A stretch of 4,066 bases of DNA from a virus (lineage: Duplodnaviria > Heunggongvirae > Uroviricota > Caudoviricetes): IMG/VR virus record IMGVR_UViG_2534681940_000043; one strand, 5' to 3'. Positions 1,806 to 2,088 of this stretch are shown here, piece after piece. The position numbers and the translations under genes are program-made. Each line of letters begins with the position of its first letter. Positions within the stretch are counted from its first letter, which is position 1. Under the pieces are notes generated by a model. The model saw only the letters and a program-made list of their open reading frames with translations, ran no database searches and was not told where the DNA came from.

Positions 1806-2008
1806 TTAATCGTATCAAGCTGGAGCACATCCTCGAATATGCCAGGCAGCAGAGGCATATTGGTCAGCATTGTAAAATTCCACCAGGAGATATGGTTGAA
1901 ATCATGGAGATTGCCATGCGCAAGGCTGGCAATTCTCCGGTAACTCCGGATGGTTGGATAAGCTGTAGTGAGCGAATGCCGGACGACAGGCAGGAGGTGA
2001 ATCAATGA
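1802..2008 (+). CDS. Hypothetical small phage protein (68 aa) ending in a DUF551-like GWIS...MP motif
   Basis: ATG 1802 overlaps the upstream stop (ATGA); GGAG at 1791..1794, 7 nt upstream. The C-terminus GWISCSERMPDD resembles the start of the DUF551 signature (WISV.D.LPE) but stops about 8 residues later. Confidence 0.6.
   Translation: MINRIKLEHILEYARQQRHIGQHCKIPPGDMVEIMEIAMRKAGNSPVTPDGWISCSERMPDDRQEVNQ
1992..1997 (+). promoter_or_regulatory. Consensus Shine-Dalgarno (AGGAGG) for the 27-aa peptide ORF
   Basis: AGGAGG at 1992..1997, 7 nt upstream of ATG 2005; lies inside the 3' end of the preceding CDS. Confidence 0.55.
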
Positions 2009-2088
2009 GCTGGCCTGATGCAATCGTAACTCTGGGGGTGGTCTTCGCAGCAGCGTTTGTTGTGTTCTCGATTTGTCGATGGGGATAA
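2005..2088 (+). CDS. Small hydrophobic (single predicted transmembrane helix) peptide, 27 aa; not in the supplied ORF track
   Basis: ATG 2005 overlaps the stop of the upstream CDS (ATGA at 2005..2008) and follows a perfect AGGAGG with 7-nt spacer. Translation MSWPDAIVTLGVVFAAAFVVFSICRWG, stop TAA 2086..2088. About 17 consecutive hydrophobic residues flanked by W/D and R/W. Confidence 0.4.
   Translation: MSWPDAIVTLGVVFAAAFVVFSICRWG

Follow-up and report, generated by a model that had tools for sequence, protein, structure and literature searches.

Does an open reading frame (ORF) of only 27 codons, lodged between two early genes of a tailed virus, encode a protein, and how might such a protein act? 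The question is raised by a 4,066 nt stretch of DNA from the IMG/VR record IMGVR_UViG_2534681940_000043 (Caudoviricetes), the whole of which is referred to here as the window. Its small ORF lies on the + strand (start ATG 2005-2007, stop TAA 2086-2088), would specify the 27 aa peptide MSWPDAIVTLGVVFAAAFVVFSICRWG, and fills the entire gap between two annotated genes, the ATG of the downstream DUF4222 gene (2093) being 4 nt past its stop. The original prediction, made from the sequence alone, described an unannotated hydrophobic peptide with a consensus Shine-Dalgarno (SD) sequence at optimal spacing and a start codon overlapping the upstream stop. The reading frame and both signals were found in place, and the core of the peptide (A6-C24) has a mean Kyte-Doolittle (KD) hydropathy of 2.63 and no charge. 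Comparative evidence and the omission of the ORF from every RefSeq record examined both support a real, coupled gene for a small hydrophobic protein that annotation has missed. The features concerned are:

2005-2088, + strand: 27-codon ORF, predicted single-helix membrane microprotein MSWPDAIVTLGVVFAAAFVVFSICRWG (ORF reading and comparison)
1992-1997, + strand: Shine-Dalgarno AGGAGG of the small ORF, 7 nt before its ATG (read from the sequence)
2005-2008, + strand: ATGA start/stop overlap of the small-ORF ATG with the upstream TGA, 2006-2008 (read from the sequence)
2081-2085, + strand: GGGGA within the closing codons TGG GGA of the small ORF, separated by 7 nt from the DUF4222 ATG

The AGGAGG is embedded in the final codons of the upstream gene (..QEVNQ, then stop). 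By its position, the GGGGA is a possible SD of the DUF4222 gene, and the ..TGGGGATAA..ATG arrangement is also present in EDL933 and in all 80 loci that were fetched by way of DUF4222.

Conservation of the reading frame and its ribosome-binding site

A 27-codon ORF is in itself unremarkable, as the window holds 66 ORFs of at least 20 aa, while a motif pattern derived from this one had no match in 200 shuffles of the window. The degenerate pattern used to gather copies, with 21 fixed bases, was built on those residues that did not vary among the first five sequences; it demanded neither an open frame nor a stop. In all but one of its 138 matches the frame stays open for exactly 27 codons before a stop (TAA in 132, TGA in five), and the matches represent 30 peptide variants and 53 distinct nucleotide sequences. 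A blastn search over 1.64 Mb of fetched DNA, with no requirement for an ORF, recovered 239 copies, of which 238 are intact at 27-28 codons. In all, 37 peptide variants were collected. ATG is the start codon in all copies. The sole disrupted copy (IMGVR_UViG_2609459844_000008, 1412-1496) has an extra G in a GGGGG run at codons 10-12 that shifts the frame, and may reflect either a homopolymer sequencing error or a true pseudogene. The small ORF is also intact in 79 of the 80 loci fetched through the DUF4222 protein alone, a shallow sample of 98-100% identical loci that adds little depth.

Frames +2 and +3 are closed by stop codons in 53 of 53 and 52 of 53 distinct sequences, respectively. On codons left unconstrained by the pattern, entropy at codon positions 1, 2 and 3 is 0.54, 0.40 and 0.93, the wobble position being about twice as variable as the others. 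For ten clade representatives, pN/pS was 0.53 (codon bootstrap 0.36-0.72), and a value of 1 or more was never reached in 5,000 replicates. When 87 distinct extended contexts are compared in pairs, identity within the ORF is 0.70-0.83 and reaches 0.9-1.0 in the SD GGAG columns; it drops from 0.82 to 0.41 at the stop codon, and is 0.33-0.41 directly past the stop and beyond -20. Because identity collapses at the stop codon and beyond -20, the unit conserved at the nucleotide level is exactly the SD plus the ORF.

Conservation in related prophages had been proposed from the outset as a check on the prediction, and the outcome favoured it: copies that differ at roughly 25-30% of nucleotides and have unrelated neighbours retain the frame, the 27-codon length, the SD and the start/stop overlap. 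The overlap takes the form ATGA in 107 of 137 copies and ATGATG in 16 more, and GGAGG is retained behind at least two unrelated upstream gene ends. On these comparisons, the small ORF can be regarded with good confidence as a real, translated gene.

The predicted peptide and its possible action

The 37 variants all share M1, W3, P4, A6, R25 and W26 and have an acidic residue (D or E) at position 5. Little variation occurs at Y21 (replaced by F in a few), I23 and C24, even though the search pattern left them free. Core residues 6-24 (19 residues) are hydrophobic in every variant (KD 1.7-2.8) and uncharged in 28 of 30. The first pattern had forced G11 and A15, so IMG/VR was rescanned with anchors at the termini only. 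Position 11 was then other than Gly in only two contigs (G11R and G11W), position 15 was Ser in 12 contigs and Val in four, and all 18 of these matches are intact family members. Since G11 and a small residue at 15 hold in the termini-anchored scans, G11-x-x-x-[A/S]15 is, to judge by its conservation, a real small-xxx-small motif inside a G-x-A-x-A-x-A run. AlphaFold2, given a single sequence with four extra in-frame residues, returned one helix from W3 to W26 with a core pLDDT of about 96, and these two tryptophans, 23 residues apart, would bracket a helix of bilayer length. If the ORF is translated, there is little doubt that its product is a membrane helix.

A mechanism can be proposed in which the small ORF is transcribed within the leftward early operon and ribosomes finishing the upstream gene restart at the strong SD of the small ORF itself. 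The product would be one transmembrane helix, W3-W26, bracketed by interfacial tryptophans, with WP[D/E]A as its acidic N-cap and CRWG as its basic C-cap. A chain of 27 residues is too short to emerge from the ribosome before termination, and the peptide would enter the inner membrane post-translationally, by analogy with YohP, where its single Arg would face the cytoplasm and probably give an N-out/C-in topology. Action inside the membrane would be through helix-helix packing along the G11-x-A13-x-[A/S]15-x-A17 run and the fixed YSICRWG end, the packing partner being either the peptide itself or a host inner-membrane protein. A specific, adjacent, phage-encoded partner is probably not needed, because the neighbours of the ORF are interchangeable (see the next section). 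Binding to a host membrane protein, as opposed to self-assembly or toxicity, is a plausible but tentative suggestion for how the peptide acts.

Neighbouring genes, carriers and annotation

The genes upstream of the small ORF encode mosaic Ead/Ea22-like proteins, in which at least five unrelated C-terminal modules were found:

..W.PLPEPPQEVNQ: DUF551 end
..NGLISVEDILR: a second module
..NIEQEVNR: 933W-type coiled coil
..CVIAGIGVEVK: a further module
..AMLKKKGMNQ: Av-05 end

The tail ..(Q)EV(N/K/R)(Q), then stop, is shared by unrelated upstream proteins because the SD belongs to the mobile unit. Downstream neighbours vary as well, with DUF4222 at 4 nt in about 43 copies, mok/hok at about 150 nt in about 40 copies, and a toxin-antitoxin pair, KilA-N and others elsewhere. 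Since the neighbours differ on both sides, the small ORF behaves, in these sequence contexts, as a portable cassette that is not tied to a fixed partner gene. Such a cassette would spread by attaching to the 3' end of the preceding early gene, whichever that is.

Carriers are concentrated in Escherichia and its relatives. Among 185,579 species-representative genomes, pattern matches were confined to Escherichia and Shigella, barring three exceptions. Two of these, contigs of Xanthomonas pisi (NZ_JPLE01000323.1, 431 bp) and Acinetobacter idrijaensis (JQCU01000559.1, 369 bp), share 96-99% identity with Shiga toxin (Stx) phage DNA of E. coli from the 933W hok region and are almost certainly, on this identity, contamination of those assemblies; the third, from Pseudomonas, is a chance match with its frame interrupted after six codons. 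At least 120 IMG/VR contigs matched the pattern. With a 116-nt query, blastn placed the ORF in at least 1,077 of 5,426 complete E. coli genomes (1,413 places, 149 of them on plasmids), while tblastn found it in 70 phage records when the window variant was the query and in 93 with the commonest variant. A tblastn search also found 181 plasmids with the ORF (155 from Escherichia, 25 from Salmonella and one from Klebsiella), of which 174 are non-mobilizable and those sampled are mostly about 80-130 kb. One that was examined closely has genes for a DNA polymerase III theta homologue, for an Ead/Ea22-like protein and for a DUF551 protein, and we take it to be P1-like on account of the theta homologue, a counterpart of the P1 hot gene. 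Overall, the carriers span lambdoid and Stx prophages, a P1-like phage-plasmid and virulent Vequintavirinae, in Escherichia and Shigella and to some extent in Salmonella, and the Stx phages include 933W, VT2-Sakai (Sp5), VT1-Sakai (Sp15), BP-4795 and Min27.

Individual records illustrate the arrangement. In EDL933 and YYZ-2008, an 87-nt gap left by RefSeq between DUF551 and DUF4222 contains MMNWPEAFTAVGVAIAVAFILYSLFRWG, which has the same caggaggtga SD, ATGA overlap and ..RWG-TAA end and matches the window peptide at 48% of residues. The EDL933 copy lies at NZ_CP008957.1 3,030,002-3,030,088. In PhiR5_1, Av-05, ArgO145, 933W and pPE4, five records that otherwise differ greatly, the upstream coding sequence ends exactly 4 nt into the ORF, which is itself unannotated. 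The virulent myophages Av-05 and vB_EcoM_TH18 (Vequintavirinae) have Ead/Ea22/EaA-like genes followed by the same coupled small ORF, and because these two carry it, the temperate-phage accessory block (Ead/Ea22/EaA-like genes plus small ORF) has, by sequence comparison, moved into lytic phages. The record PP818812.1, deposited as Actinobacillus phage vB_Apl-pPE4, encodes a peptide identical to the ArgO145 variant, and downstream of it the hok region is of the 933W type, with no difference in the 39 nt read past the stop; its Actinobacillus host assignment or the purity of its assembly is doubtful. In the CPS-53 prophage of K-12 (stretch positions 12160-12180), yfdT ends ..SQQEVK, then stop, followed by aagaggtgaaATAATAG, a remnant of the SD and junction without the small ORF, and ypdJ overlaps the 3' end of yfdT in another frame.

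The remaining features of the window place the small ORF in an operon:

1802-2008, + strand: upstream gene, an internally deleted DUF551/Ead-Ea22-like remnant of 68 aa (partial Pfam DUF551 match)
2093-2335, + strand: DUF4222 gene (Pfam PF13973, E = 8e-14)
2492-2746, + strand: excisionase gene (PF06806)
2780-4066, + strand: tyrosine integrase gene

All sizeable ORFs of the window are on the + strand, and the run ends in xis and then int. Over 87% of the window, identity to the left arm of Stx prophages of the VT1-Sakai / CP-933V / YYZ-2008 type, which are integrated beside mlrA, is about 97%. Because of the ORF/xis/int layout and this match, the window is identified as part of a lambdoid prophage, namely the exo-xis stretch of its leftward early operon. 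A search of the 4-kb window for sigma-70-like promoters gave none, against about seven expected from shuffles, and ATGA start/stop overlaps at 1449-1452, 1802-1805 and 2005-2008 chain the genes 937-1452, 1449-1805, 1802-2008 and 2005-2088. The serial overlaps and the promoter absence are compatible with one long polycistronic message.

The Pfam DUF551 match of the upstream ORF covers only positions 1-16 of the 68 in the profile. Its EDL933 homologue has 120 aa, and the first 59 of the 68 residues in the window match that protein before a direct jump to a ..RQEVNQ tail and stop (tail class CSERMPDD joined to RQEVNQ). This tail carries the SD of the small ORF and in related phages is joined to much longer Ead/Ea22-like proteins. 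DUF4222 is annotated at the matching slot in EDL933, YYZ-2008 and AR_0013. Between it and xis lies a second small gene, 2339-2473, of 44 aa (MNKAFERWVHQRYGNRYDLTRDVDGFYCREVVKRMFEVWCHCRG, phrog_3871); at this slot a 135-nt 'hypothetical protein' is annotated in the window-type records AR_0013 and PhiR5_1, and EDL933 has a divergent 135-nt ORF that begins MHTA. The ORF at 937-1452 (171 aa) belongs to phrog_9263 / phrog_631 with no Pfam match, and contains a D..EAK-type stretch (QPDAMGF..LIEAKCSRAD). Its product also weakly resembles (E = 0.003) a PHROG whose annotation is DNA repair protein, and may be a PD-(D/E)xK-like nuclease.

In calling the small ORF unannotated, the original prediction was right for every RefSeq record (annotated by PGAP) and phage record inspected and went too far for a few GenBank deposits, in which exact relatives are named 'hypothetical protein' or 'bacteriophage protein' (ASL58468.1, ETI78407.1 and AOM45384.1). 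The minimum gene length of Prodigal is 90 nt, a limit that would exclude an ORF of 84 nt and would account for the consistent omission. Fragments of the peptide at contig edges are named 'DUF551 domain-containing protein, partial' by PGAP, a label that is, judged by sequence, a misnomer: the peptide has no Pfam match, and its frame differs from that of the upstream DUF551 (PF04448) gene. A 90% protein cluster chains the peptide to unrelated 121-aa Shigella DUF551 proteins; these do not contain it, and a fusion to DUF551 was discarded. A deposited 45-aa form is the same frame extended upstream, and a homology search with it returned three proteins, all from the same ORF. A full-text literature search for the peptide strings found no paper, and a modelling paper on the exo-xis region mentions no membrane ORF.

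Alternative explanations and known systems

The conserved unit can be accounted for in other ways. If it were a coupling relay, the ORF would be translated to pass ribosomes from the upstream to the downstream gene (ATGA in; TGGGGA-TAA-4 nt-ATG out) and the peptide would be a by-product. The succession of ATGA junctions in the operon (1449, 1802 and 2005) suits such a role, as do the DUF4222 ATG 4 nt past the stop and the GGGGA motif, SD-like, formed by the last codons. However, about half of the copies have no close downstream gene (mok/hok, for example, is about 150 nt off), and a relay has no need of invariant W3, P4, A6, R25 and W26, a nearly invariant G11, a fixed length, a hydrophobic core or a pN/pS below 1, so that this account is quite unlikely. 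A membrane-damaging toxin of the type I-like class (Hok, TisB, DinQ), which would depolarise or permeabilise the inner membrane when the early operon fires, is also unlikely, if a little less so; it corresponds to the host-toxic role named in the original prediction. The peptide is small, very hydrophobic and part of an early lytic operon, about 40 of its contexts adjoin hok/sok, and the small-residue run could support self-assembly. Against this, no match to Hok/Gef or another toxin family was found, and the core is uncharged and not amphipathic. Type I toxins are typically controlled by antisense RNA and mRNA folding, whereas the small ORF has a strong SD and direct coupling, with no conserved RNA structure and no Rfam match.

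Two further accounts dispense with the peptide altogether. The conserved 100 nt might be a recombination linker between phage modules in which the open frame is incidental, and the unit does sit exactly at the junctions of interchangeable modules, with a 5' edge inside the upstream gene, so that unrelated proteins share the ..QEV(N/K/R)Q tail before their stop, and K-12 keeps only a remnant of the joint. Yet a linker has no use for wobble bias, an invariant 27 codons, closed alternative frames, conservative hydrophobic replacements or conservation that ends exactly at the stop codon, and this account is very improbable. Least credible of all is an antisense gene or a structured RNA on either strand. 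Antisense ORFs of the window at 2002-2094 and 1787-2173 cross the region, one antisense frame has no stop in 52 of 53 variants and an apparent dN/dS of 0.21, and one GenBank record, AP005154.1 (Stx2 phage II), annotates there a 750-nt antisense ORF, 'ORF C38', across the small ORF and the upstream gene (501-1250 of the stretch). The open antisense stretches, however, have no consistent start, stop or length across contexts, which makes ORF C38 probably spurious, and from the genetic code the openness of that frame would follow from a hydrophobic sense frame without Tyr, His or Gln codons. It is this architecture alone, and not dN/dS, that sets the antisense gene aside. As to a structured RNA, the RNAalifold consensus of 16 maximally divergent copies has -3.7 kcal/mol and one compensatory pair, the window folds at z = +1.25 relative to shuffles, and no Rfam match was found at E <=1.

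Taken as a whole, the likely and best explanation is a genuine protein-coding gene for a coupled membrane helix that acts by helix packing. Several observations weigh against it. A pN/pS of about 0.5 indicates moderate constraint and was obtained from only 18 free codons, and the Nei-Gojobori dN/dS of 0.36 on pattern-unconstrained codons does not separate the sense frame from the antisense frame sharing its wobble positions, which scores equally low. Most copies were gathered with a motif pattern that is blind to copies carrying indels, and the unbiased samples have little depth. Conservation shows no significant bias towards one face of the helix (p = 0.44), which gives no statistical support for a specific partner interface, and the charge bias for topology is weak, with one acidic and one basic residue. 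The peptide strings are absent from the catalogues of small ORFs (smORFs) that were searched (Hücker 2017 and Fesenko 2024 supplements; PMC11188072 text), and initiation maps of K-12 are uninformative because K-12 lacks the small ORF.

If the ORF is translated, the reference annotation lacks a gene in a large share of E. coli genomes, the medically important Stx phages among them. Genes of the exo-xis region are known to alter both the choice between lysis and lysogeny and the induction of prophages, with consequences for toxin release (PMC3824215, PMC8614690). Where the whole region was deleted or cloned on plasmids in published work, the small ORF would have gone along with it, unnoticed, in phages that carry it. 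It would also exemplify a way for a micro-gene to spread, in which the ribosome-binding site within the mobile unit overwrites the last codons of unrelated upstream proteins. The small ORF is a candidate phage-encoded modulator of a host membrane protein, and the benefits of such modulation could include exclusion of other phages or the reprogramming of transport or division early in infection. The fuller proposal, in which the SD and 27-codon cassette has spread among lambdoid and Stx phages, P1-like phage-plasmids and Vequintavirinae as a new family modulating a specific host inner-membrane protein, is doubtful as it stands; were the peptide indeed a host modulator, an unrecognised host-directed effector would be encoded in at least one in five E. 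coli genomes, the main Stx phages among them.

No family was matched in Pfam, PHROGs, NCBIfam, PADLOC or PDB. Homology to the kinds of protein suggested in the original prediction (host-toxic, Kil-like, exclusion factors or modulators of membrane proteins) was likewise not detected in these libraries. In PHROGs, the window peptide had no match and the EDL933 variant reached only phrog_35838 at E = 0.085, and the defence and exclusion models of PADLOC gave no family for five variants at E <=10. The nearest approach to a profile match was KdpF, the 29-aa subunit of the Kdp K+ pump. It is likewise a single-helix microprotein rich in small residues, and it packs against a larger membrane protein; membership of its family (TIGR02115) was rejected, the match scoring 14.7 bits against a cut-off of 26.85, over 12 residues, in one of five variants and with no kdp context. 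Hok/Gef proteins (hokW-sokW of 933W/Sp5) are also small hydrophobic inner-membrane peptides of the same phage region and often the immediate downstream neighbour. They differ in having about 50 aa, a periplasmic Cys-containing tail, translation through a mok leader and antisense control by Sok, in place of which the small ORF has a strong SD and no antisense RNA feature. Membership was again rejected, with no match in Pfam, NCBIfam or Rfam and with the real mokW/hokW/sokW forming a separate locus downstream. Lambda Kil, Rac KilR and Qin DicB are small, non-essential lambdoid accessory genes, the first two in the leftward early operon, whose products are soluble proteins acting on FtsZ or MinC; the small ORF product is instead a predicted membrane helix, with no similarity to them in any library searched.

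Closer parallels are found among short membrane proteins of enterobacteria. The intergenic smORFs of Enterobacteriaceae (PMC11188072) are likewise short, hydrophobic, conserved, under purifying selection and outside standard annotation, although the small ORF, with its 4-nt upstream overlap, is not strictly intergenic. YohP, YkgR and YshB resemble its predicted product in consisting of almost nothing but one transmembrane helix and in having been missed by classical annotation. YohP also has 27 aa, and is inserted post-translationally by the signal recognition particle with SecYEG or YidC (PMC7549839). No sequence relationship to these proteins was found, and YohP is chromosomal, stress-linked and made from its own transcript, whereas the small ORF is phage-borne, coupled and part of a mobile SD plus ORF unit. 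Very probably, then, it represents a new family of phage-borne single-helix microproteins, of a kind that is already known.

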